Shown here in pieces: positions 1,732 to 63,205 of a stretch of 64,000 bases of DNA. The DNA comes from Synergistales bacterium (GTDB lineage Bacteria; Synergistota; Synergistia; Synergistales; JAFGMB01). Within the stretch, counting starts at the first letter, position 1. The number at the start of each line of letters is the position of its first letter. The translations under genes and the position numbers were made by a program. Location: contig OY762654.1 of the NCBI GenBank assembly GCA_963666205.1, forward strand, positions 1,003,220 to 1,067,219, read 5' to 3'. The notes under the pieces were generated by a model. That model was not told the DNA's origin. It saw only the letters and a list, made by a program, of their open reading frames with translations, and did no database searches.

Positions 1732-1753
1732 TTTTCTACCTCCTTAACCTCAA

Positions 1754-14123: not shown

Positions 14124-14133
14124 AATTTATCAT

Positions 14134-17673: not shown

Positions 17674-17705
17674 AAAAAGGGGTATGCCCCGGGAGGACAT
17701 ACCCC
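17674..17705 (-). terminator. Rho-independent terminator after the radical SAM gene.
   Basis: The minus strand reads GGGGTATGT-CCTCCCGG-GCATACCCC followed by TTTTTAATT. Confidence 0.75.
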
Positions 17706-17726
17706 TTCCTCTCTTCATATATTGAA

Positions 17727-28401: not shown

Positions 28402-28614
28402 CCCTATCCTTCTCTCCGTATGAAAGTATGAGCAACCCCGTTGTTCCCCAGGGCACAGATGGAAAATATCAGGTTATTTAAAGGTTAGTTGATAAGAAAA
28501 CAAGGAAATTCATCCTTCCTGTTATCAATAATATAACCTTAATCATCTTTTTTCCATAACGCACCATTTTGAACAAACTTCAGAGACCTCAAACCGGGCC
28601 GGAAATTTATGTCA

Positions 28615-29316
28615 GCCCTGTCCGGTAAACCGATTTTGGATTTTAGATTTTGGATTTTAGATTAGATCCATTGAGTTTCTCCGTGGTGAAAAGCTTCTGG
28701 TGCTGTTTTTTTCTTTTATCGTGCAAAATAGATCCATCATTTTGCACAGTAGAAAAAAGATTTGAGGGCTTCCTCTGCGACCTCTGCGGTAAACCGATTT
28801 TAGATTTTGGATTTTAGATTTTGGATTAGATCCATTGAGTTCCTCCGTGGTGAAAGGGTTTGGGTCCTGTTTTTTTCTTTTATCGTGCAAAATAGATCCA
28901 TCATTTTGCACAGTCGACAAAGTGGCCTATTTCTTGATCTCCTAGACCCGCGAAGCGTCCGCCCGTCCCCGGTTTATTCAGTGGTTTTTGGCGGATCTGC
29001 GGTAAAACAGCTTTTGATTTTGACCTGGTTTCCCTCCGTGCTACTCCGTGCCCTCCGTGGTGAAACAGGTTTTTGGGTTTACGGTTCTAATCGTGCAAAA
29101 TAGGTCCATCATTTTGCGCAGCACACCATTGTTTATGTTTTACATCTGCGTTACTCTGCGCAACCTCAGCGCTGAAAGTCCGCCACTACTTGGGTCTAAT
29201 GGTTTTATACGATGGTTTACGGCGGATCCTCTGCGGTAAACCGATTTTGGATTTTAGATTTTGGATTTTAGATTTTGGATTAGATCCATTGAGTTCCTCC
29301 GTGGTAAAACAGCTTT
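28615..29316. repeat. Mosaic repeat patch: M1/M2 blocks, GATTTTR heptamer arrays, three hairpin A copies, and modules 5 and 6.
   Basis: The module set is the same as at 41-56 kb. Heptamer arrays lie at 28631-28668, 28795-28832 and 29241-29285. Hairpin A copies lie at 28721-28747, 28885-28911 and 29093-29119. A CTCCGTG x3 block lies at 29030-29060. Confidence 0.9.
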
Positions 29317-29319
29317 TTA

Positions 29320-35172: not shown

Positions 35173-35204
35173 TTTCCACACCTCTTTATACAATAAATGA
35201 GAAA

Positions 35205-35230
35205 GGGCCGCTTCGTAACTGAAGCGGCCC
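35205..35230 (-). terminator. Terminator hairpin between the convergent tamB-like gene and kamA.
   Basis: GGGCCGCTTC-N6-GAAGCGGCCC. On the minus strand it is followed by TTTCTCATTTATT. Confidence 0.55.
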
Positions 35231-35261
35231 CGGATATATACAGACACAGAAGCTTGAACAG

Positions 35262-36539
35262 TTATTTTTTGTTCCTTTCGTGACGGTCGAGATGGGATGG
35301 TTCGAGGGAAAGTTCCTGGCCATTGAAGAGTTTGATCAGTCCCTCGTTGGACAGACTCTTCTGGCGCGCAACATATTCTTCGTGGTGATAAAGTTCTTCA
35401 GGCCTGCTCAGGTTATCCTCAGGCTCCTTGTAGGTGGTAATGACACCCTCGTAATTCCTTAGAAGGACCGTCCTGTCTGATCTGGACACGATGTAGTTGG
35501 GCATTACAGGGATCTTGCCCCCGCCGCCTGGAGCATCCACTATGAAATAAGGTACAGCAAGGCCTGATGTGTGGCCCCTGAGGAACTCGATTATCTCGAT
35601 GCCCTTGCCGATGGAGGTCCGGAAGTGCTCGATTCCCTCGGAAAGGTCACACTGGTAAATGTAGTAGGGTCTTACCCTTATTTTCAGCAGCTGCTGATTC
35701 AGTTCCCTGAAGATGAGGGGACAGTCGTTGACGCCCTTAAGAAGAACCGACTGGTTTCCGAGGGGCACTCCCGCATCTGCCAGCATATTGCATGCCCTTG
35801 TGGATTCCGGAGTTATTTCCTTGGGATGGTTGAAATGGACATTGATCCATATGGGATGATATTTTTTAAGCATATTGCACAGCTTCTCCGTCACTCTCTG
35901 GGGACATACCACTGGAGTTCTTGTCCCGATGCGTACAAAATCAACATGGGGAATGGCTGAAAGTTCTGCGATGGTCCATTCAAGAAGGTCTTCATCGATG
36001 GTGAATGGATCTCCTCCTGAGAGGAGTACATCCCGGAAGGTGGGTGTATTTTTCACATATTCAATGCATTTAGCGATCTGTTCCTGAGAATATGCCCTGT
36101 CAGTTTCTCCCGCATGTCTTCTTCTCGTACAGTGCCTGCAGTACATGGAACACTGGTCAGTAACAAGGAGAAGCCCCCTGTCGGGATAACGGTGGGTCAG
36201 TCCTGGCACGGGAGAATCCACATCCTCATGTAGGGGATCGCAAATGTCCGAATCTGCTATATGAGTTTCTGAAACCGTCGGGACAGCCTGCATGCGCACA
36301 GGACAGGCGGGATCATCCGGATCCATGAGGGAAGCATAATATGGAGTTATGGCCATACGGAGCCTGTTCAGGCTTTTATCGATGACCCCTGCCTCTTCAT
36401 CTGAAATATTGATTACCTGCCTGAGTTTCTCCACAGAGGTTATCCTGTTGGCTATCTGCCATTTCCAGCTGTTCCAGTCTTCATCTGAAACATCCTTCCA
36501 TATGGGTACTGACCGCCTGTCTCGATATTTCTGCATCAT
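35262..36539 (-). CDS. kamA: L-lysine 2,3-aminomutase (KamA family radical SAM).
   Basis: The CSMYCRHCTRRR cluster motif and the PYYASLMDPDDPACPVRMQ and VLLSGGDP motifs are present. The size is 425 aa. Confidence 0.9.
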   Translation of the reverse strand: MMQKYRDRRSVPIWKDVSDEDWNSWKWQIANRITSVEKLRQVINISDEEAGVIDKSLNRLRMAITPYYASLMDPDDPACPVRMQAVPTVSETHIADSDICDPLHEDVDSPVPGLTHRYPDRGLLLVTDQCSMYCRHCTRRRHAGETDRAYSQEQIAKCIEYVKNTPTFRDVLLSGGDPFTIDEDLLEWTIAELSAIPHVDFVRIGTRTPVVCPQRVTEKLCNMLKKYHPIWINVHFNHPKEITPESTRACNMLADAGVPLGNQSVLLKGVNDCPLIFRELNQQLLKIRVRPYYIYQCDLSEGIEHFRTSIGKGIEIIEFLRGHTSGLAVPYFIVDAPGGGGKIPVMPNYIVSRSDRTVLLRNYEGVITTYKEPEDNLSRPEELYHHEEYVARQKSLSNEGLIKLFNGQELSLEPSHLDRHERNKK

Positions 36540-36771
36540 ACTTTCCTCCCCTGTATTCTATGAAATATAATTTTATGCGGTTTGCAAAACTTGTTCAGAA
36601 TAATCTTAACACAAAGAATTGTACCTATTTCCACGGATTCCAATGACACATTCATACAAACTCACCAGTGCTGATCGTTCAAGTCCAGATCATCCTCGAT
36701 CTGATATGATCATATCAACACGGAGGGGACCATTAATATAACAAAATACTAAAAATAAAGGGGGAACCCCT

Positions 36772-38352
36772 ATGTATTATAAAGACCTTCTTATCTCCGG
36801 CGGAACCATTCTTACAGGAGACCCCGAAACTCCACTGGCAGGATCAATTCTCATCTCAGGAAACAGGATAGCCTCCATAGGCAGTTCCCATGAAGTGAAC
36901 TGTCATCCGGGAGCAGAACAGGCCCTGAAGATCGATCTGGGCGGGAACACCCTTATTCCGGGGCTCACGGATTCCCATCTCCACCTGGCTTCAGTGGCAA
37001 AACAGATGGAGGCCCTTTCGTTGAAAGAAGCATCATCCCTGGAGGAGATGCTGGAGATCATAAGAGAGAAAGCATCCCGTATCAACCCAGGGGATTGGAT
37101 ATACGGAGTGAGATTCGATGACTCTTCATGGCCCGAGAAAAGGCTTCCCAGCAGACAGGATCTCGACGGACTGAACCTGGATAACCCAGTGATACTGGTA
37201 AGGGTCTGTGCCCATATTCATGTGGCCAACTCTATTGCTCTTAAAAAGGTCAGCCTTCCTGCTAATATAGATGTCCTTTATGAAGACCAGGCATCAAAGA
37301 TAACGGAAATGATTCAGCTTCAGATGTACGATCGCGACAGGATGAAAGATGCCATCCACCGCACATGCCTGAAACTGGCATCACAGGGTCTGACCTGTGT
37401 CCACACATGCGGATGCAGTTCCTACGGGCTCGAGGAAGATATGGATATATACCGGGAACTGAAAAAAGAGGGAAAACTTCCCCTTAGAGTGGTCTATTAC
37501 AATGATGAACTCCCCGAACCCGGCCTGGAGAGCGGGGATGGAGACGACTGGATCCGCTACGGAGGTTACAAGATGTTCCTTGACGGCTCCCTGGGAGGAC
37601 GAACTGCAGCCCTCACCCTGCCCTATGAGGATCATCCCGGCAACATGGGTGTCCTCAACCATACTGCCGCAGAGGTCAGGGAACGTATGCTGGAAATGCA
37701 CTCGAGAAATATTCAGGTCCAGGTCCATGCCATTGGCGATGCTGCCATTGACCAGTTCATAGAAGCCCTGGAATATGCCTATGCCCATGGACCCCGGAGC
37801 AGTTCCAGCCTTCGTCACAGGATCGTCCATGCGCAGGTATGCCGCCCCGAACAGGTGGTGTCTCTCCGAAAACTGGAGGCCATTTGCGACATCCAGCCAG
37901 GTTTTGTACCCAGCGACATAGACATAGCCCGCCAGAGACTCGGGAAGGAAAGGGAACCCTGGGCCTACGCCTGGAAGGACTTTCTGAAAGCAGGCCTTCT
38001 ACTCACCGGATCCAGCGATGCCCCCGTAGAATCCACGGACCCCTTCCGGGGGATCTGGGCAGCCATGAACAGGACAGACGATAATGGATCTCCCGAGGGC
38101 GGATGGAGGCCGGAACAGAAACTCACTCTGGAGGAAACGCTGCCCCTCTTCACCTCCAACCCATGGAAGGCCATTGGCCTTTCCTCCCCCTTCGGTATGC
38201 TGAAGAAGGGTTATGCTGCCGACCTTGTCATTCTCGACAGGGATATAACAATTGCACCGCCCCATACATTAAGGAATGTAAAGCCTCTCCTCACCATGGT
38301 GGGCGGCACTGTAAGCTACGGGAAACTGGAGGGATGGCCCTCCATCCTATAA
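36772..38352 (+). CDS. Amidohydrolase family protein (Amidohydro_3 / YtcJ-like metal-dependent hydrolase).
   Basis: PGLTDSHLHL, VHAIGDAAID and SSDAPVE are metal-ligand motifs. Confidence 0.8.
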   Translation: MYYKDLLISGGTILTGDPETPLAGSILISGNRIASIGSSHEVNCHPGAEQALKIDLGGNTLIPGLTDSHLHLASVAKQMEALSLKEASSLEEMLEIIREKASRINPGDWIYGVRFDDSSWPEKRLPSRQDLDGLNLDNPVILVRVCAHIHVANSIALKKVSLPANIDVLYEDQASKITEMIQLQMYDRDRMKDAIHRTCLKLASQGLTCVHTCGCSSYGLEEDMDIYRELKKEGKLPLRVVYYNDELPEPGLESGDGDDWIRYGGYKMFLDGSLGGRTAALTLPYEDHPGNMGVLNHTAAEVRERMLEMHSRNIQVQVHAIGDAAIDQFIEALEYAYAHGPRSSSSLRHRIVHAQVCRPEQVVSLRKLEAICDIQPGFVPSDIDIARQRLGKEREPWAYAWKDFLKAGLLLTGSSDAPVESTDPFRGIWAAMNRTDDNGSPEGGWRPEQKLTLEETLPLFTSNPWKAIGLSSPFGMLKKGYAADLVILDRDITIAPPHTLRNVKPLLTMVGGTVSYGKLEGWPSIL

Positions 38353-41239: not shown

Positions 41240-41460
41240 GAATCGAAAATCTAAAATCCAAAATCCAAAATCGGTTAACCGCAGAGGGTCCGCCGTAAAC
41301 CATCGTATAAAACCATTAGACCCAAGTAGTGGCGGACTTTCAGCGCTGAGGTTTCGCAGAGTAACACGCAGGAAGACAAGAACCGTAGGGTGCTGCTTTA
41401 GCGCACCGAAACGACCAAGGTTGATAGATGTCACGAAATCGTAAATTTGTACCAGGAAGG
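41240..41460. repeat. Mosaic repeat patch in inverted orientation: heptamer array, M1, module 5, and a degenerate hairpin B.
   Basis: This is the reverse complement of the module string seen at 29141-29290 and 42829-43000. Confidence 0.9.
41351..41415. repeat. Left arm of the perfect 65-bp inverted repeat bracketing the DUF4143 ATPase gene.
   Basis: By manual reverse-complementing, it is identical to 42829-42893 (GTCGTTTCGGTGCGCTAAAGCAGCACCCTACGGTTCTTGTCTTCCTGCGTGTTACTCTGCGAAAC). Confidence 0.9.
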
Positions 41461-41646
41461 ACTTTCGGATCGGAGGGCACAGAGGAAAACATAAGACATA
41501 AAAACCGTAGACCTTTTCACCTATATCATGAAATCCCTGCCTTATTCATTGAATAAACATAATGTACATGATAATATTTAACCATACTTCAAAAATATCA
41601 TGATAATTTTGAAGTTGACTTAAAAATTATCATAAGAGGTACCTCG

Positions 41647-42825
41647 ATGATCAAAAGATATATTGCAGATATTATCAGGGAAGATCTCCAACATAAAATG
41701 GTGTTCATAGGCGGCCCAAGACAGGTAGGAAAAACTACCCTCGCAAAAATGATAGGTGAAGATTACCCCTCTTTCACCTATCTGAACTGGGATTTCCGCC
41801 CCCACAGAGAAGCTCTTGTAAGATCGACACTACCTGCTGAAACAAATCTCCTGATCCTTGACGAGATCCACAAATATCCTGATTGGAAATCTCTGATAAA
41901 GGGGATCTGGGACACCAGGACAGGCGACGAATCCATTCTGGTAACTGGAAGCTCCAAGCTGGACATTTACAGAAGAGGCGGGGATTCTCTCCTTGGCAGG
42001 TACCACTATTTTCGACTTTATCCTTTGACTCTGAAAGAACTGAATTCTCAAGCTCCCGTAGGCATGGATTTCCCGGATAAAGCTCCGAAACTTGATCTGG
42101 ACTTATCGGGGAAAGGATTGGACAAGCTCCTTTTTTTTGGAGGTTTTCCAGAACCTCTGCTTTCGGAAAGCGAAAGGGTATTGAAAAGGTGGCAAAGAGA
42201 AAGATTTGAAAGGGTCTTCAGAGACGATATCAGGGAAACAGAGAACATAAGATCTCTTGCACAGATAGAGCTTCTGGCAGCTATGCTTCCATCCAGGGTG
42301 ACATCACCCTTATCTCTGAATTCTCTGGCTGAAGACCTGGAAACCAGTTCAAACACAGTAAAAAGCTGGATGGATCTTCTTTGCAGAAATTATTTCACCT
42401 TTAAAATACCTCCATATCACAAGCGTCTTGAAAGGGCTCTCAAAAAAAGTTCTAAATACTATCTTTGGGACTGGTCCGAAATAAAGGATGAAGGTGCACG
42501 TTTTGAAAACCTTATGGCAGTTCATTTGTTGAAATATGCACATTTTATCCAGGACAGCCATGGAATTTCTGTTGAACTGTATTACCTCAGGGATACTGCT
42601 AAACGGGAAGTGGATTTTCTGCTGACTTGGCAAGACAAACCCTGGATTCTTGTCGAAACCAAGGTTAACCATGGTGATAGTTTAACCTCTCTGAACTATT
42701 TTGCAGATAAGCTTGGAGTTGATGAAAAATATGTAGTATGTCTGAATGATAAAAAAGATTACCTCGACAGGAACTCCGGCGTAAGGGTAATACCTGCAAG
42801 CAGATTTCTAATGTCCCTTGTGTGA
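41647..42825 (+). CDS. AAA+ ATPase with a C-terminal DUF4143 (AAA_14 + DUF4143 family).
   Basis: The Walker A is GGPRQVGKTT and the Walker B is LLILDEIH. The length is 392 aa and the RBS is AAGAGGT. Confidence 0.8.
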   Translation: MIKRYIADIIREDLQHKMVFIGGPRQVGKTTLAKMIGEDYPSFTYLNWDFRPHREALVRSTLPAETNLLILDEIHKYPDWKSLIKGIWDTRTGDESILVTGSSKLDIYRRGGDSLLGRYHYFRLYPLTLKELNSQAPVGMDFPDKAPKLDLDLSGKGLDKLLFFGGFPEPLLSESERVLKRWQRERFERVFRDDIRETENIRSLAQIELLAAMLPSRVTSPLSLNSLAEDLETSSNTVKSWMDLLCRNYFTFKIPPYHKRLERALKKSSKYYLWDWSEIKDEGARFENLMAVHLLKYAHFIQDSHGISVELYYLRDTAKREVDFLLTWQDKPWILVETKVNHGDSLTSLNYFADKLGVDEKYVVCLNDKKDYLDRNSGVRVIPASRFLMSLV

Positions 42826-43710
42826 TCAGTCGTTTCGGTGCGCTAAAGCAGCACCCTACGGTTCTTGTCTTCCTGCGTGTTACTCTGCGAAACATTTGCG
42901 CTTACAGTCCGCCTTAACGTCTTTGTAAGATGGTTTGCGGCGGATCCTCTGCGGTAAACCGATTTTAGATTTTGGATTTTAGATTTTGGATTAGATCCAT
43001 TGAGTTCCTCCGTGGTGAAAGGGTTTTAACGGTTCAGCTTTACGGTTCTTAGGTTTAACTCGTGCAAAATAGTATCACCGTTTTGCGCAGTAGAAAAAAG
43101 ATTTGAGGGCTTCCTCTGCGCTCTCTGCGCCCTCTGCGGTAAAATAGCTTTTGATTTTGACCTGGGTTCCCTCCGTGGTGAAAGGGTTTAACGGTTCAGC
43201 TTTACGGGTTTTCATGGCACAAAGCTGCGCTTTCGTGCCTCCACAAAACCTTTATCTCAGTAGCATCTGGTCCGAATGTACGAATCTTTCATCTTACTCC
43301 TGAAGAGTTACCCCAAGGGTTTATGTCTTCCTCTGCGCTCTCTGCGCCCTCTGCGGTAAAATAGCTTTTGACTTTGACCTGGGTTTCCCTCCGTGTACCT
43401 CCGTGCCCTCCGTGGTGAAAAAGTTTGGGGTGGATGTTATAGTTACTGGTTTTATTGTTTCCATGGCACAAATCTCCGATTTCGTGCCTCCCCAAAACCT
43501 TTATCTCAGTAGCATCTGGTCTGAATGGATGTTGACATGGAACTCAACTTTATCTTACCGGCCCGAAGGTCCGCCCGTCCACGGTTTGTTTAGATGGGTT
43601 TTGGCGGATTTCCTCTGTGCTCTCTGCGCCCTCTGCGGTAAAACAGCTTTTGACTTTGACCTGGTTTCCCTCCGTGGTACTCCGTGTCCTCCGTGGTGAA
43701 AAGGTTTGGG
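42826..43710. repeat. Mosaic repeat array: four consecutive M1-linker-M2-hairpin super-units.
   Basis: M1 blocks lie at about 42945, 43113, 43328 and 43610. M2 blocks lie at about 43005, 43168, 43385 and 43665. Hairpin A lies at 43062-43088. Hairpin B copies lie at 43216-43239 and 43465-43488. Confidence 0.9.
42829..42893. repeat. Right arm of the 65-bp perfect inverted repeat.
   Basis: It begins 3 nt after the ATPase stop codon. See 41351-41415. Confidence 0.9.
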
Positions 43711-45075
43711 TCAGGATCTCCAATAATCACATACCAGGTCTTCCAGCCTTACCAGGTTAATATCCTCTGATGATTCCAACCCCTTGAAACCTGACCTGGA
43801 GAATATATAAAATACCGTTCTGCTGCAATCCCTTCCGACTACTTTCCGGATCTTGTCAGCCTTACCTGCCAGATCCATGAAAACCCTTGAATTTGCCGGC
43901 TCACGAGTCCATTTACATTCACCAAGCACCAGGGTCTCGCCCTTTACAGCCACTATATCAACCTCATCCTCACCATCCCACCACCTGCCCATACCTTCAG
44001 GGTTTATCCAATCTTTCAGAACCTGCCTGCAGATCTTCTCCCAGGTAAAGGAAGTATGCATAGAAAGAGTGGATGAGATCTTTTCCTGGACATCAGACCC
44101 TCTCTCCCTATAGATAAGTTCCTGATCGTCCAGCAGATACCTGAAATAAAAACGCAGATACTCATCCTCGATGAAGTACAGGGGGATCTTTTTAGGTCTT
44201 TTCAGGGAGAAGGGAAGTTCCTTGCGGATCAGTCCAAGCTCAAGGAGATTCCTCAGGTAAGTTGAAATGTTCTGATGGGGAATACCAGTGATCTGTGCTA
44301 TTTCGGATGCCCTGGTCCTGCCCTTTGCAATTGTCCTCAGGATCGAAAAATATGAAGTTGGATCCTTTTTGAACTCCTCCATAACCAGAAAACGGCCCTC
44401 TTCCACTAGAAATTCACCAGGGCTCAGCATCGATTCCTTCAGTGCATTATTAAAAGAACCGTGTCCAGACATCTTCTTGAGATAAAGAGGAATTCCCCCA
44501 ACTGCAGAATATGTTTTTACCTGGTCTTCCATGTTCAGGTCAGGTAAAAATTTTCTTGCCTGCAGAAATCCCATAGGATCGATACGGTATTGCCCTGTTC
44601 TTCTGCCATATATGGGACTGCTCTCTGCCAGGGTGATTCTTTCCATCATGCCGATAAAGGAACCGCAAAGCACCATCATCACCGGCAGTTTACTGAATAC
44701 CTGATCCCACCATCTCTGAAAAAGGGAAAGAAAGGAATCATCCTTGATGGGAATATACTGAAATTCGTCCCATACGATAACCAGTTTTTCTCTGGATAAT
44801 TTGATCATCTTTTCCAGAAGGGAGAACATCTCATCCCATTTAGTGACTTCCAGAGACAAAGGCAGTTCTGCTTTTTCTTTAAGGGGAATAGAGAACCTGT
44901 TGATCAGCTGCTGCGGTTCAGACATATCAGCAGTCAGGAAAAGAGCTCCGGGAAATGTGTTCTCAAGGAGGAAAGTCTTCCCTACCCTTCTCCTGCCATA
45001 TATAACGACCAGCTCTGCATTTTCAGACCTGAACTTTTTTTCAAGAAATTCTTTCTCCTGTATCCGATCTATCAT
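43711..45075 (-). CDS. ATP-binding protein (archaeal-type ATPase domain + DUF234).
   Basis: The Walker A is YGRRRVGKTF and the Walker B is VIVWDEFQ. The C-terminal region is DUF234-like. The ATG at 45075 follows GGGGGTG. The maximal ORF extends to 45162. Confidence 0.8.
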   Translation of the reverse strand: MIDRIQEKEFLEKKFRSENAELVVIYGRRRVGKTFLLENTFPGALFLTADMSEPQQLINRFSIPLKEKAELPLSLEVTKWDEMFSLLEKMIKLSREKLVIVWDEFQYIPIKDDSFLSLFQRWWDQVFSKLPVMMVLCGSFIGMMERITLAESSPIYGRRTGQYRIDPMGFLQARKFLPDLNMEDQVKTYSAVGGIPLYLKKMSGHGSFNNALKESMLSPGEFLVEEGRFLVMEEFKKDPTSYFSILRTIAKGRTRASEIAQITGIPHQNISTYLRNLLELGLIRKELPFSLKRPKKIPLYFIEDEYLRFYFRYLLDDQELIYRERGSDVQEKISSTLSMHTSFTWEKICRQVLKDWINPEGMGRWWDGEDEVDIVAVKGETLVLGECKWTREPANSRVFMDLAGKADKIRKVVGRDCSRTVFYIFSRSGFKGLESSEDINLVRLEDLVCDYWRS

Positions 45076-45164
45076 ATGCGCACCCCCAAAATCAAAAAAT
45101 ACAGAAGATATATTCTGCAAATATATCTTCTGTATTTTAAGGGCTGCTCTTATAAATTGCAAAT

Positions 45165-45547
45165 AGTCCTTTCGGTGCGCTCTCTGCGGTAAACCAGCTT
45201 TTGCCTTAGGTTTTATGTTTTCCTCAGATATTCCTCCGTACCCTCCGCAGTAAAAGTGTCTACTGTTTTCAGGTTTTATGTTTCCCTCTGTGCCCTCCAG
45301 GTCTAATCTTTACCATGGCACAAAGCTGCGCTTTCGTGCCTCCACAAAACCTTAAAGTTAAGATGTAATCTATCTGAACTGTCAAAAAAGGAATAAATCC
45401 TGAATATTATGTCAAAGAAGTCTTGTTTTCCTCATGTTTTACCTCTGCGGTACTCTGCGTGACCCCTGCGCCCTCTGCGGTAAAACAGGTTTTGACTTTG
45501 ACCTGGGTTTCCCTCCGTGGTGAAAGGGTTTTAACGGTTCAGCTTTA
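45165..45547. repeat. Mosaic repeat patch.
   Basis: M1 blocks lie at about 45178 and about 45440-45485. A degenerate M2 lies at about 45230 and an M2 at about 45510. Hairpin B lies at 45317-45340. The terminal module TTTTAACGGTTCAGCTTTACGG overlaps the stop codon of the next gene. Confidence 0.9.
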
Positions 45548-47686
45548 CGGGGTATCTCCCCTTCGGTAATTCCCGCTCAGGTAATCATACAACCCATACA
45601 CCCGCACCGGATCCTCCAATACCCTGCCCCCCATATCCGCACAGTACCTCTCCAGTTCCTGGTATAGATTCTTCCCCAGCACATCCGGGTTAAGCTGCCT
45701 CAGAAGCTGTTCCGGGGTCTGCCAGGCACCGGGCTGACGGGCAGCATAGTAATTCCATGTAGACAGAAGGGTGAATTCCGAAGTCCATGTGTGGGCACTT
45801 TCCCTGCCGAACCAGTAATCCGCCGGTATCTCCAGATACATGCCAGCATTGCTGTAACTTTTGTCCATGGTCAGGTTATCCGTTCTGGCGATCCAGAATC
45901 CCACACCAAGGTTGTTCCACCACCTGGTCGCAGAAAACCTGGCACCCCAGTCACCGTCTATAAAGACACCGTACTCTCCAGTAAGGTCAAGGTCATAAAC
46001 AGGATCATGATAACCGGCCTGGGCCCAGTACTCCCACCACCACTCATCATCCGGATAACCTCTTCCCACGGTTATCCTGCCCGTTCCTCCGAATGTCACC
46101 GGCTTATCAGCCAGGGAAGCGAAACCCTCGGGGTCCCTTTCATGGACCACGCTCATCCGGCCCCCTACCCACCATCGGCCGTCATCGCTGTAAAACCTGG
46201 CCCATGCATTTCCGCCGAACCACTGGGCATCCAGCCACCCGGCCTCACCCAGGGCAAAGAACCTGTCGTTTATCTTGTAAAGGTAACTGAGAACACCCTT
46301 CCATATGCGGGTTTCGTCATTGGTCTCGGGTTCCCAGTAAATATCTATATCGTTATCGATGGGCTGGCGGATATCCATAATGGCCTCCCAGCCATGGCTC
46401 GACCTCATGCGGTAGATCCAGTCAACACTCCAGCGGTCCATATAATCTTCCTGGAGGGTCCTGTCGATGCGGGGTTCGTAGACAAGCATGGCCTTGAATT
46501 CCGAATTGCCCTTATGTCCCGACCTGCCAGGACCATAGTGGACAGGCCACTTGTCACGGAAAAGATCATCCCGGACCCAGGTGATTTCAGCCCCGGCCGC
46601 ATCGGTTGCACTTATGTCGCCAAGGCGCAGTAGACCGCACTGGTAACCGGGAACTTCAAGAACACTGATGGCCTCGCCTCGAAGCCTTGGCACCAGGAAA
46701 AGGCTTTCCGTATCCCATGGAAGAAGCAGGGAAGTAAGGGTCATAACCCGGGCCATGGCCTCAGCCTGGGACGTATAGCCGATATTCTCGTAGGCCACAA
46801 GGACTCTCCTGTCACCGATGAACACCTCCACATCCCGAACACCGACCCTGTTTCCGACATACTCCACAATCTGCTCTGCAAGACCTTCCAGGTCAGTTTT
46901 CTCCCAGTCGGGAAGGGTTACATCTGAAGATTCGGGAAGTGCATATTTCTTTTTATTTTTCCCGAAAAAGGGCTTCGTGAGGTCAAAATTGTATGAAAGG
47001 CCGAAACACCACTCCTCACCCCTCTGATAACTCAGGGAAGCATCCACACCCCAGGGGGTCTTCGCCACAAATCCCGCATTTACCTTTGAATCGACATCCT
47101 CCGCGATGATCCGTCTGGAACCTATAGTATCCTGGCTGTAATCCAGAGGGCTGTACTCAGCCTTGACCTCAAGCCAGTCATAGGGCTGCCATGAAAGGCC
47201 GCCGAAAAAGCCGTTAAGTCTGTCGCTGCCATAACCCCATGTGAGGGCAAGCCTGTCCCATTCCCAGGTGGCCACGCTGTAATAGGCCTGCATTATCTTC
47301 GTACCCAGAATGTCCGTAACGCCAAAGGCAACACTGGGGCGGCACTCATCCTGTTGAAACATGAGAAATTTAAGGTCAATGGCCTTGTCCTTGTATTTTC
47401 CGTAACCTTCCGATATCTGTGGCCCCGTAGCGAAACGGGTAAGGCGCAGGTTCAGTTCCATCCAGGGAAAATAACCGAGGGAAATGTAGTATGGCCTGTA
47501 GGGCTCGAACCATGAAATGCCCACCCTGCCCATACCGTCACCGGGCACCTGTGCCGTGGGGTACTCCCACAGGCCGAGGAATCCAGCATTGGAAGGACTT
47601 GCTCCGTATGAACTGCCTGTAAAGGCTGTAATAAGTAACAGAGAAAAGACAAAGACCGTTAAAAATATCCTGCGAAAAATGACCAA
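45545..47686 (-). CDS. YjbH/GfcD-family outer-membrane exopolysaccharide-associated protein.
   Basis: A signal peptide is present. GLWEYPTAQVPGDGMGRVGISWFEPYRPYYISLGYFPWMELNLRLTRF parallels the YjbH N-terminal motif pattern. The protein is 713 aa and rich in Trp, Tyr and Gly, consistent with a beta-barrel. Confidence 0.65.
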   Translation of the reverse strand: MVIFRRIFLTVFVFSLLLITAFTGSSYGASPSNAGFLGLWEYPTAQVPGDGMGRVGISWFEPYRPYYISLGYFPWMELNLRLTRFATGPQISEGYGKYKDKAIDLKFLMFQQDECRPSVAFGVTDILGTKIMQAYYSVATWEWDRLALTWGYGSDRLNGFFGGLSWQPYDWLEVKAEYSPLDYSQDTIGSRRIIAEDVDSKVNAGFVAKTPWGVDASLSYQRGEEWCFGLSYNFDLTKPFFGKNKKKYALPESSDVTLPDWEKTDLEGLAEQIVEYVGNRVGVRDVEVFIGDRRVLVAYENIGYTSQAEAMARVMTLTSLLLPWDTESLFLVPRLRGEAISVLEVPGYQCGLLRLGDISATDAAGAEITWVRDDLFRDKWPVHYGPGRSGHKGNSEFKAMLVYEPRIDRTLQEDYMDRWSVDWIYRMRSSHGWEAIMDIRQPIDNDIDIYWEPETNDETRIWKGVLSYLYKINDRFFALGEAGWLDAQWFGGNAWARFYSDDGRWWVGGRMSVVHERDPEGFASLADKPVTFGGTGRITVGRGYPDDEWWWEYWAQAGYHDPVYDLDLTGEYGVFIDGDWGARFSATRWWNNLGVGFWIARTDNLTMDKSYSNAGMYLEIPADYWFGRESAHTWTSEFTLLSTWNYYAARQPGAWQTPEQLLRQLNPDVLGKNLYQELERYCADMGGRVLEDPVRVYGLYDYLSGNYRRGDTP

Positions 47687-47724
47687 CCACTCCCCGAAGA
47701 AAAGTCAAACAAAAAACGAACCAG

Positions 47725-47895
47725 AACAATTTTACCGCAGAGGACGCAGAGAACGCAGAGGAAAGCGTAACCCTGAGTGAACCATTTTTCTTTAACCTGC
47801 TGCGTATATATTTCCGAGTTCATCCGCTCAGACCTTATCCAACTTAGACTGAGGTTAATGGATGTCACATAATCATAGATTTGTGCCAGGAGAAA
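47725..47895. repeat. Inverted copy of the hairpin B-tail-M1 element (about 165 bp).
   Basis: The reverse complement aligns along its length with 51753-51925. Hairpin B lies at 47864-47887 and M1 at 47731-47761. Confidence 0.85.
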
Positions 47896-47930
47896 CTCTA
47901 GCCATAAATTCTGGCTGGTTACTGGATTTA

Positions 47931-48308
47931 CTACAGCCCGTTGGCAAATCGGGTTATACCATCCTTAAGTTTGACTACATTGAAATTAATAAGCAATCCT
48001 AGTTTCTTGCCGCTCAGTTTCAAGTAAGAAAGGATCTGAGCCTTATGTATATCCGTTATTTTTTCAACGGATTTAAGTTCAATAATAATCTCGTCCTCTA
48101 CAACCAGATCCAGACGATAACCCAAGTCTATTTTGACTTCATCATAAATCACAGGAAGAACTTTCTGGGACTCAACTTTAAAGCCTCTTTTATTTAATTC
48201 ATAACAAAGACAAGCTTCATATGAACTTTCGAGAAGACCCGGACCTAAAGCAGAATGTACTTTAACAGCGCTATCAATAATTTCTTTGCTTATCTCATTT
48301 ATCTCCAT
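47931..48308 (-). CDS. GxxExxY protein (small PD-(D/E)XK nuclease-superfamily protein).
   Basis: A 125-aa protein with GPGLLESSYEACLCYEL (the GxxExxY motif) and D...ELK core residues. It is a paralog of 55280..55657. Confidence 0.85.
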   Translation of the reverse strand: MEINEISKEIIDSAVKVHSALGPGLLESSYEACLCYELNKRGFKVESQKVLPVIYDEVKIDLGYRLDLVVEDEIIIELKSVEKITDIHKAQILSYLKLSGKKLGLLINFNVVKLKDGITRFANGL

Positions 48309-48384
48309 AGGTCTGAATACCCCCCAATTCAGTCATGACAAAACCCTAACCATTCTACAACAAAATTGTTTTTGGTTTTGCCTC

Positions 48385-48890
48385 TAAGTCGTGCAAAACC
48401 GAGTCTGGTTTTGCGCAGTAGGAAAAAGATTTGCGGGTTTCCTCTGCGCTCTCTGCGCCCTCTGCGGTAAAACAGGTTTGAGGGTAGATTTTATAGTTTC
48501 CGTTTTTATTGTTTCCATGGCATAAATCTACGATTTCATGCCATACATCAACTTTGAGGTAAAGTAGTATCTAGTCCGAACATTCTGAACCCAGAATTGG
48601 GAAAATCCCATATTCCGCAATGTTTTAAGCTTTTCCTCCGCGGTACTCTGCGCTCCCTCTGTGTCCTCTGCGGTAAAACAGGTTTGAGGGTAGATTTTAT
48701 AGTTTCCGTTTTTATTGTTTTCATGGCACAAATCTACGATTTCGAGCCTCCCCAAAACCTTTATCTTCGTAGGATATGGTCTGTCCGGACAAATATCACA
48801 TGTTATTCATGAACAGTTATACCAAGGTTTTACGCCTTCCTCCGTGGTAAAAGGGTTATAACGGTTCAGCTTCACGGGTTTTACTCTTGA
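48385..48890. repeat. Mosaic repeat patch.
   Basis: Hairpin A lies at 48391-48416. M1 blocks lie at about 48440 and about 48635. Hairpin B copies lie at 48519-48542 and 48725-48748. An M2 lies at about 48838. Confidence 0.9.
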
Positions 48891-48923
48891 AAAAGGAAAC
48901 TTCATGTTTCAAAGTAAACCATT

Positions 48924-49505
48924 TTATTTTACTCTCATTACAACTCCGCCATTGCCCCCAACATTTGCTGGATTTTCCGATGCTATAAATAAACTCTTCG
49001 AAGGATCATCAAGATTCTCGCTCAGGGAACCATCATAGATCCCGCTTTCGGGAGACATCCTTTCCAGCTGTTTTCTGATCGAATAATCCGCATAGGTATT
49101 AGTAACATTGGCTGCAACATAAATATGAACATCTGGAGTGGCATAGGAAGGATCGCTTCCCGGCCCGGAAACATAGATAAAGTACGGGTTCTTTGAAGCA
49201 TTATTCCAATCCTTTGGACCCGTTATACTGTGAGGTTCAGGTATACCCCTGTCCAGGTATTGGCTCAGGCTGTTTATGCTAATTACACCCCAACCCTGCT
49301 CACTCTGGGAAAACCACTGCTGATTATCAGCATAGTACATAACTACTGCAGTCTTGAGAACTTCCAGGTTTGAGACTATCTTTGTCGCCTCGCTCTTACT
49401 GGTCGCGCTTCCGATTGTGATCATAAGAGAACCTGAGAGAATGCCTATAATGATGATTACAATGAGGATCTCTATAAGGGAAAAACCTCTGCTGCGCTTT
49501 TTCAA
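48924..49505 (-). CDS. Prepilin-type N-terminal cleavage/methylation domain protein (type IV pilin / pseudopilin-like).
   Basis: MKKRSRG-FSLIEILIVIIIIGILSG is a class III signal sequence. The TTG start follows AGGGAGG. Confidence 0.8.
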   Translation of the reverse strand: MKKRSRGFSLIEILIVIIIIGILSGSLMITIGSATSKSEATKIVSNLEVLKTAVVMYYADNQQWFSQSEQGWGVISINSLSQYLDRGIPEPHSITGPKDWNNASKNPYFIYVSGPGSDPSYATPDVHIYVAANVTNTYADYSIRKQLERMSPESGIYDGSLSENLDDPSKSLFIASENPANVGGNGGVVMRVK

Positions 49506-49694
49506 CTCTCAATTACCTCCCTGGCTGATTAGTATGTGGGATCTTGAACACCATTGAATAGTGTACAGACCTGTTTTCTAACCACCAGGGCAAAAAAGCC
49601 TGTTTTCCAGGGGACAGGAAGACCAATTTCCCAGGGACTTATGGACCATTTGTATTTCTCATTCGCTCAAGTCCCCCATACCTGGGTGTATTTA

Positions 49695-50300
49695 GCCTTA
49701 TCGGTGCGCTGGAGCGCACCCTGCAAAACTTTATCTTACCGGGCCGAAGGTCCGCCCGTCCTCGATTTGTTTAGTGGGTTTTGGCGGCTTTCCTCCGTGG
49801 TAGAAAGGTTTACGGTTCTAAGGTTCCAATCGTGCAAAATAGTATCACCGTTTTGCGCAGCATGTATTATAACAAGTGGTTATGACTTTCCTCCGTGCTA
49901 CTCCGTGACCTCCGTGGTAGATAGGTTTTAGCGTTTGGGCTTTACGGGTTTTCATGGCACAAATCTACGATTTCGTGCCTCCCCAAAACCTTTATCTTCG
50001 TAGGATATGGTCTGTCCGGACAAATATCGGATGTTATTCCTGTTCAGGTATACCAAGGTTTTACGCCTTCCTCCGTGTCCTCCGTGGTGAAAGGGTTATA
50101 ACGGTTCAGCTTTATGGGTTTCCATGGCACAAATCTTCGATTTCGTGCCTCTCAAAAACCTCAATCTTAGTAGTATTGGATCTTGCAAAACATAACCAAA
50201 GATTAGTCGCAGCATATTTATACAAAAGGGGTTAAGCTTTCCTCTGCGCTCTCTGCGCCCTCTGCGGTAAAACAGGTTTTGACTCTGATTTTGACTTTGG
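49695..50300. repeat. Mosaic repeat patch.
   Basis: Module 6 lies at about 49725-49795. M2 blocks lie at about 49790, 49890 and 50070. Hairpin A lies at 49832-49858. Hairpin B copies lie at 49956-49979 and 50126-50149. An M1 lies at about 50240. Confidence 0.9.
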
Positions 50301-51090: not shown

Positions 51091-51243
51091 TTTAACCGCA
51101 GAGGACGCAGAGAAAACCGGGAGGAAAGCATAAAAACATCGCTATGTAGATTTTATTAATCTCCTGTTTTATATATACATGACCTGATCCTACTAAGATA
51201 AAGGTTGATGTATGGCATCAAATCATCGATTTGTGCCAGGAAG
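51091..51243. repeat. Inverted copy of the hairpin B-tail-M1 element.
   Basis: M1 lies at 51091-51113 and hairpin B at 51214-51237. It is colinear with 54837-54985 and 47731-47887. Confidence 0.85.
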
Positions 51244-51444
51244 CAAATATTTACAGTGGGCATCGAAGAAAATAACCTGGTTTTTTACCTGGAATATTTT
51301 AAATTGACTTAATTTTTATGTTCCATCATGTGATACCAGCGGCAGAAAAAGGTTCTCTTTTCTGCCGGCAGTCAACCTTAAAAAACAAAGAAATATTGTA
51401 ATAAAACCGTAGAGTCAAAAACATTGCCCAAATTAAGTTTCAGT

Positions 51445-52217
51445 ACTTGGGTTCCCTCTGCGCTCTCTGCGCCCTCTGCGGTTAGCTTAGGGTTAATAGG
51501 GGTAAAAGGTTTACGGTTCAGGTTTACGGGACCAATCGTGCAAAATAGTTCCATCATTTTGCGCAGCATAACAAGGAGTGTTAAGGGCCGAATGTCCGGC
51601 CAACCCGGCTTTAAGTTTTTTAGGAAGATCTTTGACGGAGGTTTTTGGCGGGTTTCCTCTGCGGTAAAAGAAAGATACTGAATTTGTTTTTGACTTTGGT
51701 TTTATTGGTTAAGAGGTTTTCCTCTGTGACCTCTAGTTCGAAAGCACTACCTGGCACAAATCTACGATTTGGTGCCATACATCAACCTCAGTCTAAGTAG
51801 CATAAGATCTGAGTGGACGTAACATCGGAATAAACACGCAGTATATGGATAAAATGGTTTGACGGGTTTCCTCAGGGTCTACCTCTGCGAAACTCTGCGT
51901 AACCTCAGCGTCCTCTGCGGTAAAACAGCTTTTGATTTTGACCTGGTTTCCCTCCGTGTCCTCCGTGGTAGATAGGTTTTAGCGTTTTGGCTTTACGGGT
52001 TCCCATGGCACAAATCTCCGATTTTGTGCCTCCGGAAAAACTTGTTCACCAGGTTTTGTAAGTTTCAGGTTCTCGTTCTTAATCGTGAAAAATCTAGTCT
52101 GATTTTTCGCAGCATGTTTCTTAAATCATTTGGTCTCGTTTTCCTCTGCGCTTCCTCTGCGCTCTCTGCGCCCTCTGCGGTAAAATAGCTTTTGACTTTG
52201 ACCTGGTTTCCCCTCCT
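51445..52217. repeat. Mosaic repeat patch.
   Basis: M1 blocks lie at about 51455, 51655, 51880 and 52140. Hairpin A copies lie at 51538-51564 and 52085-52110. Hairpin B copies lie at 51753-51776 and 52007-52030. An M2 lies at about 51950. Confidence 0.9.
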
Positions 52218-54825: not shown

Positions 54826-54836
54826 AACCAAGAGCT

Positions 54837-55245
54837 GTTTTACCGCAGAGGTCGCAGAGAGCGCAGAGGAAACCGAAAGGCAGGCATAAAAATTTCGCTG
54901 TGTAGGTTTTTATTAATCTCCTGTTTTATACATGCATGACTTGATCCTACTAAGATAAAGGTTGATGTACTTTTGTGCCATGGGCATAAAGAAAATCATC
55001 AATTCTAAGAGCAAAACATGTAGTTACCTCAGAGGACGCATCGGAAAATTATAAAGAATGCAATGTTGTTTACTCTTTTGACCGTTTATTATTCTAGAAG
55101 GTTTTGGCGGATTTCATGTAGACAGGAAGTTCTAGGGGGCTAATCGTGAAAAATCTAGTCTGATTTTTCGCAGTAATACAGATTTTACAGGTTTAACGGT
55201 TTCCTCTGCGCTCTCTGCGACCTCTGCGGTTAGCTAAGGGGTTTA
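54837..55245. repeat. Mosaic repeat patch.
   Basis: An inverted M1 lies at 54837-54869, with a truncated hairpin B at about 54965-54980. The forward hairpin A-M1 unit lies at 55144-55232. Confidence 0.9.
55144..55232 (+). repeat. Left copy of the 89-bp direct repeat flanking GxxExxY gene 2.
   Basis: 88/89 identical, by manual comparison, to 55868-55956 (TCGTGAAAAATCTAGTCTGATTTTTCGCAGTAATACAGATTTTACAGGTTTAACGGTT[T/C]CCTCTGCGCTCTCTGCGACCTCTGCGGTTA). Confidence 0.9.
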
Positions 55246-55279: not shown

Positions 55280-55657
55280 ATGGAAATTAATGAAATTAGC
55301 AAAACAATTATCGACAGTGCTTTCCAAGTTCACAAAGCATTAGGACCAGGTCTCCTCGAAAGTGCATATGAAGCCTGCCTCTGCTACGAACTCAAGAAAA
55401 GAGGATTTACAGTAGAATCCCAGAAAGTTCTCCCGATAATTTACGATGGACAACAAATTGATGTTGGTTATCGCCTGGATCTTCTTGTACAAGATCAGGT
55501 CATAGTAGAACTCAAATCTGTTGAACATATAAATGAGGTACATAAAGCACAGATACTCTCGTATCTCAAACTTGGTAATAAGAAACTCGGACTACTTATC
55601 AATTTCAACGTAGCCAAAATCAAGGACGGGATAACCCGTATCGTCAACGGTTTGTAG
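55280..55657 (+). CDS. GxxExxY protein (PD-(D/E)XK nuclease superfamily), paralog 2.
   Basis: A 125-aa protein with GPGLLESAYEACLCYEL. By hand alignment, about 78% of residues are identical to 47931..48308. Confidence 0.85.
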   Translation: MEINEISKTIIDSAFQVHKALGPGLLESAYEACLCYELKKRGFTVESQKVLPIIYDGQQIDVGYRLDLLVQDQVIVELKSVEHINEVHKAQILSYLKLGNKKLGLLINFNVAKIKDGITRIVNGL

Positions 55658-55744: not shown

Positions 55745-55965
55745 GTCGGTCAAAATGGGTTGATCATTTTGACCAGTAGAGATTTTTATACAAAAAAGAT
55801 GTTTTTAGGTTTTCTCTGCGCTCTCTGCGGTTAGACAGGATTTAGACTTTAGGGTTGCCGGTTTTATTCGTGAAAAATCTAGTCTGATTTTTCGCAGTAA
55901 TACAGATTTTACAGGTTTAACGGTTCCCTCTGCGCTCTCTGCGACCTCTGCGGTTAAACAGTATT
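55745..55965. repeat. Mosaic repeat patch, including the right copy of the 89-bp direct repeat (55868-55956).
   Basis: A hairpin A variant lies at 55748-55774. An M1 lies at about 55812. A hairpin A lies at 55870-55895. An M1 lies at about 55925-55955. Confidence 0.9.
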
Positions 55966-57223: not shown

Positions 57224-57328
57224 AGTCTGAGAGTAAAAAGTTTTGAATATCATTTCCAGAAGAATCCAAGGATAAGAGCCATATTTCACTCGATTCAACG
57301 AATACTATCGAGAAAGGAACGTGTACTC

Positions 57329-58792: not shown

Positions 58793-58833
58793 GACGTCGC
58801 CCTCAATTAATTAAGGCTACATGGTGAACTTAC

Positions 58834-60634: not shown

Positions 60635-60787
60635 TTGTGATGGATACATAAATATAGATAAAAATGCAAATTATCCCTGCTAGGAATTGGTAACTTATTT
60701 CCCTAAAAGAATATGAATTGACCTTAGGTTTTACTATTTGTAAACACAAGATTTCTCGTAGTATTAAATTATTAGTATGAGAAAGGA

Positions 60788-61906: not shown

Positions 61907-62012
61907 AAGCTAAGTACAGAGAAAATAGGTTTTCAAGAACCTTTTGGATTATAACATTGATTGATTGATTGATTTCTTGAACAGTACCAAGAGATCGGAT
62001 TAATAAAATTGG

Positions 62013-63140: not shown

Positions 63141-63205
63141 CGCTGTCATAATCTCCCCCAAAAGGAACTTACCTAATCAATAGCAACATTAGGAGGATTT
63201 TGCTC

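Follow-up and report, generated by a model that had tools for sequence, protein, structure and literature searches.

GxxExxY nuclease genes lie between periodic inverted arms across phyla and share a repeat-rich Acetomicrobium interval with two solitary ATPase–nuclease genes

The 64,000-nucleotide stretch of contig OY762654.1 analysed here (hereafter the window) comes from a genome of Acetomicrobium (Synergistota) with a chromosome of 2.95 Mb, and in its interval 41.2–56.0 kb four nuclease genes lie among mosaic repeats. Here a conserved metabolic block (amidohydrolase, PTS EIIC, 3H regulator and DUF362 genes), which ends at the DUF362 gene, meets an exopolysaccharide (EPS) locus that comprises YjbH, a Synerg-CTERM protein, Wza, Wzz, WbaP and low-GC glycosyltransferases; the left flank is 93% identical at the amino-acid (aa) level to a metagenome-assembled genome of A. 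hydrogeniformans (L003). A gene and domain scan covering about 30 open reading frames (ORFs) of the window placed all four of the PD-(D/E)XK-domain genes that it identified within 41.6–55.7 kb. An earlier note, drawn from the letters of this stretch, had called four genes with their domains at 41.6–48.3 kb and a further GxxExxY gene at 55280; the scan returned the same genes and domains, with YjbH at 45545–47686(−), and the further gene matched PDDEXK_3/TIGR04256 at 55280–55657(+). The four nuclease genes are:

41647..42825 (+): G1, AAA_14 (2e-25), winged helix and DUF4143 (3e-25) PD-(D/E)XK nuclease; PADLOC type PDC-S01
43711..45075 (−): G2, ATPase_2 (3e-21; Orc1/Cdc6-like AAA+), MarR/ArsR-type winged helix-turn-helix (wHTH) and DUF234 (3e-16) PD-(D/E)XK nuclease; PDC-S27 type
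47931..48308 (−): GxxExxY_a, 125-aa PDDEXK_3 nuclease with conserved E27, D67, E77, K79 and Q91
55280..55657 (+): GxxExxY_b, second PDDEXK_3 gene, 74% nucleotide (nt) and 78% aa identity to copy a

The two GxxExxY genes match PDDEXK_3/TIGR04256 with E-values of 1e-44 (copy a) and 3e-45 (copy b), scoring 148.9 and 152.8 bits in Pfam (cut-off 22) and 153 and 158 bits in NCBIfam (cut-off 35). The family counts 21,947 representatives at 50% clustering, and at least 95% of 122 sequences keep G24-E27-Y30, D67 and E77-x-K79; some members (P0381–P0385 and about 15 others) are about 275 aa long and carry two tandem PDDEXK_3 domains. Each copy in the window is enclosed by a pair of inverted arms, and similar arms also occur as a pair with no gene between them:

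47730..47764 (−): downstream arm of GxxExxY_a, TTTCCTCTGCGTTCTCTGCGTCCTCTGCGGTAAAA on the gene strand; 33 of 35 bases complementary to 48438–48472
48438..48472 (−): upstream arm of GxxExxY_a, TTTTACCGCAGAGGGCGCAGAGAGCGCAGAGGAAA on the gene strand; partner 47730–47764
54835..54875 (+): upstream arm of GxxExxY_b; 39 of 41 bases complementary to 55921–55961
55921..55961 (+): downstream arm of GxxExxY_b; partner 54835–54875
51097..51480 (no strand): ORF-less inverted periodic arm pair with a 343-nt loop (an 'empty' element), from the arm-pair scan

The GxxExxY arms of the window are 35–41 nt long, consist of three 9-nt units and end in TTTACC or TTAACC. Within the cassette of copy b, 92-nt direct repeats (55141–55232 and 55865–55956, 98% identical) flank the gene as well. 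Inward-facing arm pairs in the window enclose only G1, GxxExxY_a, GxxExxY_b and two ORF-less loops (51097–51480 and 54844–55228), in neither of which a GxxExxY remnant was detected; outward-facing arms surround YjbH, the Synerg-CTERM gene and Wza, and same-orientation arms surround G2 and a pseudopilin ORF. The repeats themselves had been seen in the earlier note, which did not recognise their key module as the terminal arm of a GxxExxY cassette.

This architecture recurs far outside the window. We fetched 80 metagenomic GxxExxY loci, of which 71 had enough flank to compare the 260 nt upstream with the 260 nt downstream for an inverted repeat scoring above the 99th percentile of shuffles, the controls being the remaining ORFs of these loci that reach 100 aa or more (n = 92). 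Such a repeat flanked 53 of the 71 GxxExxY loci (75%) and 5 of the 92 control ORFs (5%; Fisher p = 2e-21), and it was found in 44 of the 61 clusters that remained after 90% nt clustering, over a GC content of 0.29–0.68. The arms have a median length of 35 nt and lie at −65 to −31 from the ATG and at +11 to +56 from the stop codon. Within them the unit C-R-C-N-R-A-G recurs with a spacing peak at 9 nt (212 cases, versus 69 at 8 nt and 86 at 10 nt). The sequence of the unit varies by locus and tracks GC content (CACAAAG, CACAGAG, CGCAGAG, CGCCGAG, CGCGGAG, CGCAGAT), with left and right arms matching within a locus, co-varying, and differing between loci. The outer terminus is conserved as T, T, C/A, A (95%), C (83%), with the consensus TT[C/A]ACC; since it lies outside the detection pattern, its conservation is independent of that pattern.

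Modules of at least three units reach 30 per 100 kb in GxxExxY loci versus 0.87 per 100 kb in unrelated loci totalling 1.15 Mb, a 35-fold enrichment, and eight of the ten modules in the unrelated loci are ORF-less pairs on one contig. When arms were paired (85 pairs), 47 pairs were spaced at 350–700 nt and filled by an ORF, and 18 were spaced at less than 150 nt and ORF-less; the ORF-less pairs usually share their unit type with a filled cassette on the same contig. A 19-kb stretch from an unrelated uncultured bacterium (L074), on which no GxxExxY gene lies, carries within 9 kb four ORF-less periodic-arm hairpins (6291–6447, 9035–9125, 14051–14179 and 14940–15021), whose units are of two types, CGCAGAGG and CACAGATG. 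A scan with the module pattern also found it on IMG/VR contigs of 48–65% GC, so the module is not specific to Acetomicrobium. The neighbours of these IMG/VR matches were uninformative (one integrase, one Mu Gp37-like protein), and 2 of the 10 matches were coding CxxC false positives; on one IMG/VR contig (L090, 700–2700, GC 53%), five same-orientation periodic modules flank two ORFs beside a phage integrase gene at a predicted viral contig end. The N-terminal extensions of many database GxxExxY proteins (MNHEDTKT, TEDTE) are translated arms. The proteins are about 70% identical in aa sequence across phyla, which points to horizontal spread. A literature search, outside which most subscription journals lay, returned no description of the GxxExxY cassette, and we regard its novelty as provisional.

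G1 and G2 are of a different build, with an ATPase in front of the nuclease domain. The longest ORF of G2 extends to 45162 (483 aa), and homologues of 450–455 aa agree with the internal ATG that the earlier note had chosen. The AlphaFold models (pLDDT, the predicted local distance difference test, 87.6 for G1 and 93.8 for G2) show an alpha-beta-beta-beta-alpha-beta core at both C-termini (H, helix; E, strand): H282-305, E309-315, E321-328, E331-339, H347-356 and E360-365 in G1, and H326-357, E361-367, E370-378, E381-388, H396-413 and E419-426 in G2. In a PD-(D/E)XK nuclease, helix 1 bears an acidic residue, strand 2 a D and strand 3 the (D/E)xK motif, and both the DUF4143 domain of G1 and the DUF234 domain of G2 have this core with its residues: over 55 sequences of the G1 type, E287, D323 and E337 do not vary and K339 reaches at least 90% conservation, and over 67 of the G2 type, D373 does not vary and E346, E386 and K388 each reach at least 90%. 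DUF234, DUF4143 and PDDEXK_3 are all classed as PD-(D/E)XK families (Steczkiewicz 2012, PMC3424549). The nuclease-fold assignment that the earlier note had made for these three families is thus supported by the published listing and, for G1 and G2, by the modelled cores and conserved residues. The N-terminal ATPase domains of G1 and G2 are homologous to each other (hhalign probability 93.6%); in whole-chain Foldseek searches the N-terminal half of G1 neighbours RuvB, ORC, MuB and Avs4, and that of G2 neighbours the archaeal ATPases PABY2304 and SSO1545 and Orc1/Cdc6. Sequence searches of the PDB with the G1, G2 and GxxExxY proteins returned no informative match.

Upstream of each ATPase–nuclease gene lies a palindrome:

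41569..41632 (+): overlapping palindromes of operator-like form (TGATAAT...ATTATCA), read directly from the sequence upstream of G1, with a promoter-like match at 41578–41607
45096..45138 (−): perfect 19-bp palindrome with a 5-nt loop, overlapping a promoter-like −10 site of G2

The G1 palindrome also occurs in two congeners (L003 and L089), and an analogous pattern, TGAYAATT/AATTRTCA, lies upstream of 60%-identical G1 homologues from unrelated bacteria (L242, L243 and L245). An identical 19-bp palindrome is found 27 nt upstream of an 82%-identical G2 homologue at a different locus (L088), and the G2 palindrome is presumed to be the operator for G2's own wHTH. Elsewhere, homologues of G1 and G2 are solitary too; they have toxin-antitoxin genes, an insertion sequence (IS), cas remnants or a tandem paralogue as neighbours, and IMG/VR contigs carry distant relatives. 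Tandem paralogue pairs of G1 homologues are seen at L243 2501–5026 and L245 3719–5325, and in Candidatus Magnetomorum one G1 homologue adjoins truncated cas1/cas2 genes. G1 and G2 are best read as autonomous, probably self-repressed ATPase–nuclease genes of defence-candidate type.

The genes of the interval are embedded in further repeats, of which the following are distinguished:

41241..41415 (no strand): left inverted arm of the G1 unit, with GATTTTR 7-mers, a TTAACCGCAGAGG terminus and the periodic module CGCTGAG/CGCAGAG/CACGCAG; complementary to 42829–42992, alignment score 223
42829..42992 (no strand): right inverted arm of the G1 unit, ending in CCTCTGCGGTAAACC, then GATTTTR 7-mers
42993..43710 (+): composite repeat array with units of about 220–280 nt: hairpin CGTGCAAAA..TTTTGCGCAG; CTCTGCG x3 and GTAAAA; TTTGACCTGG; CTCCGTG x1–3 and GTGAAA; bulged hairpin GGCACAAATC..GATTTCGTGCC
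43585..43690 (+): direct-repeat module left of G2, partner 45427–45530 (repeat family D4)
45427..45530 (+): direct-repeat module right of G2, partner 43585–43690
48381..50056 (no strand): window-only segment with a pseudopilin-like ORF at 48924–49505(−) (N_methyl/GspG-like domain), between direct CTCTGCG x3 modules at 48436–48478 and 50236–50278 (families D3 and D8)
28402..29319 (+): the same repeat modules at a distance, in an array that separates a GGDEF/PAS gene from an MFS transporter gene

G1 is thus bracketed by 175-nt inverted arms in the window. The commonest module consists of three 9-nt units CTCTGCG(n)(n) followed by GTAAAA, with a sister type CTCCGTG...GTGAAA. The intergenic gaps across the G1, G2, YjbH and GxxExxY region measure 411, 885, 469, 244 and 615 nt and are all filled by mosaic repeats, in keeping with the repeat-filled separations of 0.25–0.9 kb reported before. 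Surveyed gap by gap, 9 of 9 gaps at 41.2–56.0 kb contain repeat motifs, and so does the remote gap at 28402–29319; the other window gaps of at least 60 nt (n = 27) are essentially motif-free, with a single match at 36540–36771. Non-nuclease genes, namely YjbH, the pseudopilin, the Synerg-CTERM protein and Wza, are repeat-flanked as well. The repeats are therefore real and regionally concentrated, yet they also border genes that encode no nuclease. No tRNA gene or integration site was found at the interval, the Rfam scan of the region returned zero families at the gathering threshold or at E of at most 1, and there is no rRNA in the window.

All motif matches at 41.2–56 kb and 28.4–29.3 kb show an orientation bias of 100 versus 16 that is independent of gene orientation, and the GC skew is uniformly negative; the bias may be linked to replication direction or to tandem amplification. 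The bulged hairpin GGCAC-AAATC-loop-GATTT-C-GTGCC (43215–43240, 43464–43489, 48724–48749 and other copies) carries compensatory changes, AAAGC/GCTTT versus AAATC/GATTT, and a second hairpin module compensates too (CGTGCAAAA..TTTTGCGCAG versus CGTGAAAAATC..GATTTTTCGCAG), neither with an Rfam match. We rejected a sigma-54 promoter reading of the TGGCAC in the hairpin module, as no TTGC stands at the distance such a promoter needs and as the module forms a bulged hairpin whose copies show compensatory changes. Short-read assemblies stop exactly at the G1 repeat boundaries (175 or 261 nt upstream and 5 nt downstream; contig ends of L001, L002 and L089) and also break in GATTTTGGATT 7-mer tracts (L088, 1–26 and 11253–11277), and many database entries for G1, G2 and GxxExxY are contigs that barely exceed the length of the gene.

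We compared the window with three further Acetomicrobium genomes, the A. hydrogeniformans genome (L003), L083 and L089, in all of which the gene order is kept. G2 is missing from L003, where a single hybrid copy remains of the approximately 90-nt direct repeats that flank G2 in the window. The 1.7 kb at 48381–50056 are unique to the window, being absent from L083 and L003; the matching gap of L089 has only ~0.9 kb of repeats, with no called gene. Direct repeats lie at the breakpoints of both indels. The variable hotspot proposed in the earlier note is accordingly supported in part: G2 is missing in one congener and the pseudopilin segment is window-only, and the gene order is conserved in four Acetomicrobium genomes. 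Third-codon identity between the window and L003 is 97.5% for G1 and 98.4% for GxxExxY_a, as compared with 72–86% for eight neighbouring genes; GxxExxY_a reaches 100% in both L083 and L089, where its neighbours are at 77–97% and 81–86%, respectively. Overall, G1 and GxxExxY_a range from 96 to 100% by this measure. Since this identity exceeds that of the surroundings, the nuclease blocks were exchanged between lineages much more recently. Both high-identity blocks, 41472–42865 and 47723–48537, have both ends in repeat modules, and in L003 G1 is bracketed by different arms, a canonical CACGGAG x3 pair among them. In more distant Synergistales the left block persists, with G1, G2, YjbH and GxxExxY all missing downstream of it. 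On the conserved side, the L083 amidohydrolase (17270–18850, versus window 36772–38352) aligns in three pieces and is called at 405 rather than 526 aa, and it may be frameshifted or a pseudogene. L003 has about 4 kb of extra sequence (1300–4312 and 5624–6654) with three ORFs (496, 417 and 250 aa) between the TamB, radical-SAM and amidohydrolase genes, which is absent from the window (sites 35171–35262 and 36573–36758).

We interpret the interval, with a probability of roughly 55%, as a DUF362/EPS junction that two autonomous kinds of nuclease gene colonised in Acetomicrobium, with GxxExxY as the cargo of an arm-bounded cassette whose nuclease acts on its own arms, and with the arms amplified into recombinogenic arrays. 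The data show the anatomy with its statistics, the pattern among genomes and the conservation of the catalytic residues; nuclease action on the arms, mobility, autoregulation and any defence role are inferred, as follows. G1 and G2 would each carry their own promoter and palindromic operator, repress themselves through the winged helix, and act as nucleoside triphosphate-dependent, DNA-binding nucleases of a conflict or defence type. The cassette is a 125-aa PD-(D/E)XK ORF between inverted arms of 35–41 nt, each built from three to four 9-nt units C-R-C-N-R-A-G-n-n and closed by the outer terminus TT(C/A)ACC. The GxxExxY nuclease would recognise these periodic arms as DNA and nick or cleave there, and the cleavage would propagate or maintain the ORF-bearing element and its ORF-less derivatives, much as with REPINs and their REP-associated tyrosine transposases (RAYTs; REP, repetitive extragenic palindromic). 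In Acetomicrobium, solo and tandem arms would have joined other hairpin modules and been amplified into mosaic arrays, and these arrays would offer homologous stretches at which recombination can insert, remove or exchange individual genes; its outcomes would be the indels of G2 and of the pseudopilin and the recent replacement, between species, of the blocks that hold G1 and GxxExxY_a.

A number of observations weigh against this reading. For the cassette, neither an orthologous pair of empty and filled sites nor a consistent target-site duplication was found (the termini TTMACC...GGTKAA themselves belong to the inverted repeat), and both GxxExxY copies sit at the same positions in every congener that covers them, so they are not hopping on that timescale. 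Arm modules of at least three units in the Acetomicrobium region are distributed 16 versus 2 by orientation and are mostly solo, a pattern that does not follow from a simple transposition of cassettes. The upstream arm of compact cassettes stops about 31 nt short of the ATG; the arms must therefore be part of the mRNA, and a role at the RNA level is possible. Profile comparisons among the nuclease domains did not reach significance: hhalign of the G1 and G2 C-terminal domains aligns their D...ExK motifs without significance (E = 0.004, probability 8%), that of the G1 C-terminal domain with GxxExxY is likewise not significant (E = 0.24), and the whole-chain Foldseek searches are informative for the ATPase halves only, as AAA+ domains dominate the matches. 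G2 lacks inverted arms, and among homologues of G1 and G2 from other taxa (IMG/VR loci together with five loci of metagenomic or genomic origin) there are 0 periodic modules in 165 kb, with inverted repeats at 3 of 19 and 0 of 15 loci. The arm association thus belongs intrinsically to GxxExxY, whereas it is lineage-specific in the case of G1 and G2 does not have it. Because G1 is arm-bracketed only in this genus and G2 not at all, the repeats are tied to GxxExxY and not to nuclease genes generally; of the earlier suggestion that the genes are functionally tied to the repeats, this upholds the part concerning GxxExxY, with its cross-phylum architecture, limits the part on G1 to this genus and drops that on G2. 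Lastly, when one PDC-S01 and one PDC-S27 representative were challenged with T4, T5 and T7 in E. coli B, the systems that protected numbered four and included neither of them.

That last result bears equally on an alternative which we consider unlikely, namely that the interval is a small defence islet in which all nuclease genes, GxxExxY included, are anti-phage effectors beside a variable EPS locus, the repeats being the species' generic intergenic filler and a recombination substrate. Both PDC-S01 and PDC-S27 count as phage-defence candidates of PADLOC whose validation is pending, described as single-gene systems with an ATPase fused to a PD-(D/E)XK domain and scattered by horizontal transfer (PMC12988326). 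G1 matches PDC-S01 (PDLC04790, 1e-52, residues 1–387) and G2 matches PDC-S27 (PDLC04984, 7e-51, residues 29–381 of the 483-aa ORF), and both resemble these systems in their full-length hidden Markov model match, their ATPase and PD-(D/E)XK architecture and their single-gene state; they differ in that G1 lies here inside an inverted-arm bracket and G2 has a conserved perfect palindrome upstream. The viral-contig homologues, their toxin-antitoxin, IS and cas-remnant neighbours, the presence and absence of G2 among congeners, and the repeats that flank non-nuclease genes both here and in L088 all suit such an islet. Against it, the PADLOC matches of GxxExxY are weak and Cas4-like (E > 8e-4), and a defence island has been defined by at least 5 defence genes of at least 3 systems within a 10-gene spacing (PMC12881386), whereas PADLOC gave only two candidate single-gene systems as significant among the seven ORFs scanned at 41.6–55.7 kb. 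It would also leave the 75% versus 5% cross-phylum association of GxxExxY with periodic arms unexplained. Of the defence-like cargo envisaged in the earlier note, there remains the match of G1 and G2 to candidates that are themselves unvalidated and whose single tested representatives gave no protection in E. coli.

We think it similarly improbable that the arms work as RNA, pairing in the transcript to enclose the GxxExxY ORF in a long stem that controls mRNA processing, stability or translation, with ORF-less pairs as structured RNAs or terminators and no DNA mobility. The near-perfect, co-varying complementarity of the arms and the probably transcribed position of the upstream arm are as this model would have them, and the closest described architecture, the Coxiella/Leptospira intervening sequence (IVS), is cut by RNase III (PMC4990558). 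Yet among 181 transition mismatches between arms, 88 would be G.U in the sense RNA versus 93 A.C (p = 0.77), so that there is no strand asymmetry and neither strand shows signs of having been selected to form an RNA stem. Solo arms are abundant, no Rfam family matches, and a simple stem needs neither 9-nt units, nor the C-R-C-N-R-A-G pattern, nor a TT[C/A]ACC terminus kept across 29–68% GC; as the periodic units and conserved terminus exceed what such a stem needs, recognition of the arms by a protein is favoured. Mere coincidence, with REP-like intergenic palindromes independent of the genes and nuclease genes as ordinary accessory genes among them, would find some comfort in the array at 28.4–29.3 kb between the GGDEF and MFS genes, in the arrays in nearly every gap of L088 and in the armless G2. 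It is very hard to reconcile with the Fisher test of GxxExxY against control ORFs in the same loci, with the 35-fold module enrichment over background loci and with the restriction of ORF-enclosing inward-facing pairs in the window to nuclease genes, and for GxxExxY we regard it as already disfavoured.

Returning to the reading of GxxExxY as the cargo of an arm-bounded cassette, we raise more tentatively, and with more doubt than belief, a wider proposal: that GxxExxY is the mobilising or maintenance nuclease of cross-phylum palindromic elements with tandem 9-nt units and TT(C/A)ACC ends, a PD-(D/E)XK counterpart of RAYT/REPIN. ORF-less pairs would then be non-autonomous, and in Acetomicrobium the arms would bracket further genes, for instance the PDC-S01-type G1, and help in their exchange. 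No function is known for the very large GxxExxY/PDDEXK_3 family, and the arms provide it with a conserved candidate DNA partner. If true, the proposal would describe a selfish nuclease element of minimal build, a system of repeat-bounded single-gene cassettes that has no integrase, and possibly a second REPIN/RAYT-like system built on a different enzyme, and it would account for the NHEDTKT/TEDTE N-terminal extensions and the contig breaks at repeats. If the arms shuttle other genes too, they would constitute a new route of inter-species single-gene exchange. The operators of G1 and G2 and their repeat-bounded presence or absence, for their part, offer handles on two of the most abundant unvalidated defence candidates.

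Two further observations concern other parts of the window. GC content falls to 30–39% at 57000–64000, where WbaP and the glycosyltransferases of the EPS locus lie, versus about 47% elsewhere, which is consistent with a horizontally exchanged polysaccharide cluster. At 647–684(−), directly downstream of ORF 685–1731(−), a bacterial selenocysteine insertion sequence (SECIS) element (Rfam RF01990) scores 38.4 bits, just above the gathering score, and suggests a selenoprotein gene whose frame runs on through UGA.

Among described systems, the ORF-bearing IVS of Coxiella and Leptospira 23S rRNA measures 444 nt, has a terminal stem of 28 bp and an S23p ORF and is cut by RNase III, and such elements have been proposed to be selfish or mobile by a mechanism that is unknown (PMC4990558). 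The GxxExxY cassette resembles it in size (about 0.45–0.75 kb) and in holding one small ORF between terminal inverted repeats of roughly 30 bp. It differs in lying between protein-coding genes, in encoding PDDEXK_3 rather than the four-helix S23p, and in having periodic arms with a conserved terminus and without the strand asymmetry expected of an RNA stem; we rejected a 23S rRNA intervening sequence (helix 25/45, RNase III excision) on this intergenic position and on the lack of an rRNA or Rfam match. An integron attC arrangement was set aside because the ORF lies inside the palindrome, between the arms, instead of being followed by one attC, because the arrays are far more complex, because no integrase occurs among the ORFs scanned at 23–59 kb, and because the arms by inspection lack the R''/R' GTTRRRY pattern. 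A CRISPR-like array does not fit the irregular spacing, and there are no cas genes in the window.

PD-(D/E)XK nucleases with roles in mobility include TnsA, Rpn/PDDEXK_2 'transposase_31' and the PD-(D/E)XK homing endonucleases. Compared with transposons and miniature inverted-repeat transposable elements, the cassette shares with them terminal inverted repeats with sub-terminal units that look like protein-binding sites, the common ends of ORF-bearing and ORF-less versions, and the nuclease superfamily of TnsA and its like; it departs from them in having no visible target-site duplication and no recombinase or strand-transfer domain, and in its length of only about 0.5 kb. The comparison with REPIN/RAYT goes furthest. 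There the gene is an HUH/Y1 (IS200/IS605-like) transposase, the REPIN is a single GTAG/CGTC-tagged hairpin and RAYT is typically single copy, whereas GxxExxY is a 125-aa PD-(D/E)XK nuclease with arms of tandem 9-nt units and is multi-copy, with two copies in 64 kb and large families elsewhere. In both, a single small gene stands between inverted copies of a short palindromic repeat family whose ORF-less inverted doublets are dispersed intergenically and assembled into mosaic arrays, and the GxxExxY cassette thus has the architecture that marks REPIN/RAYT systems, flanking inverted dispersed repeats together with ORF-less doublets elsewhere.

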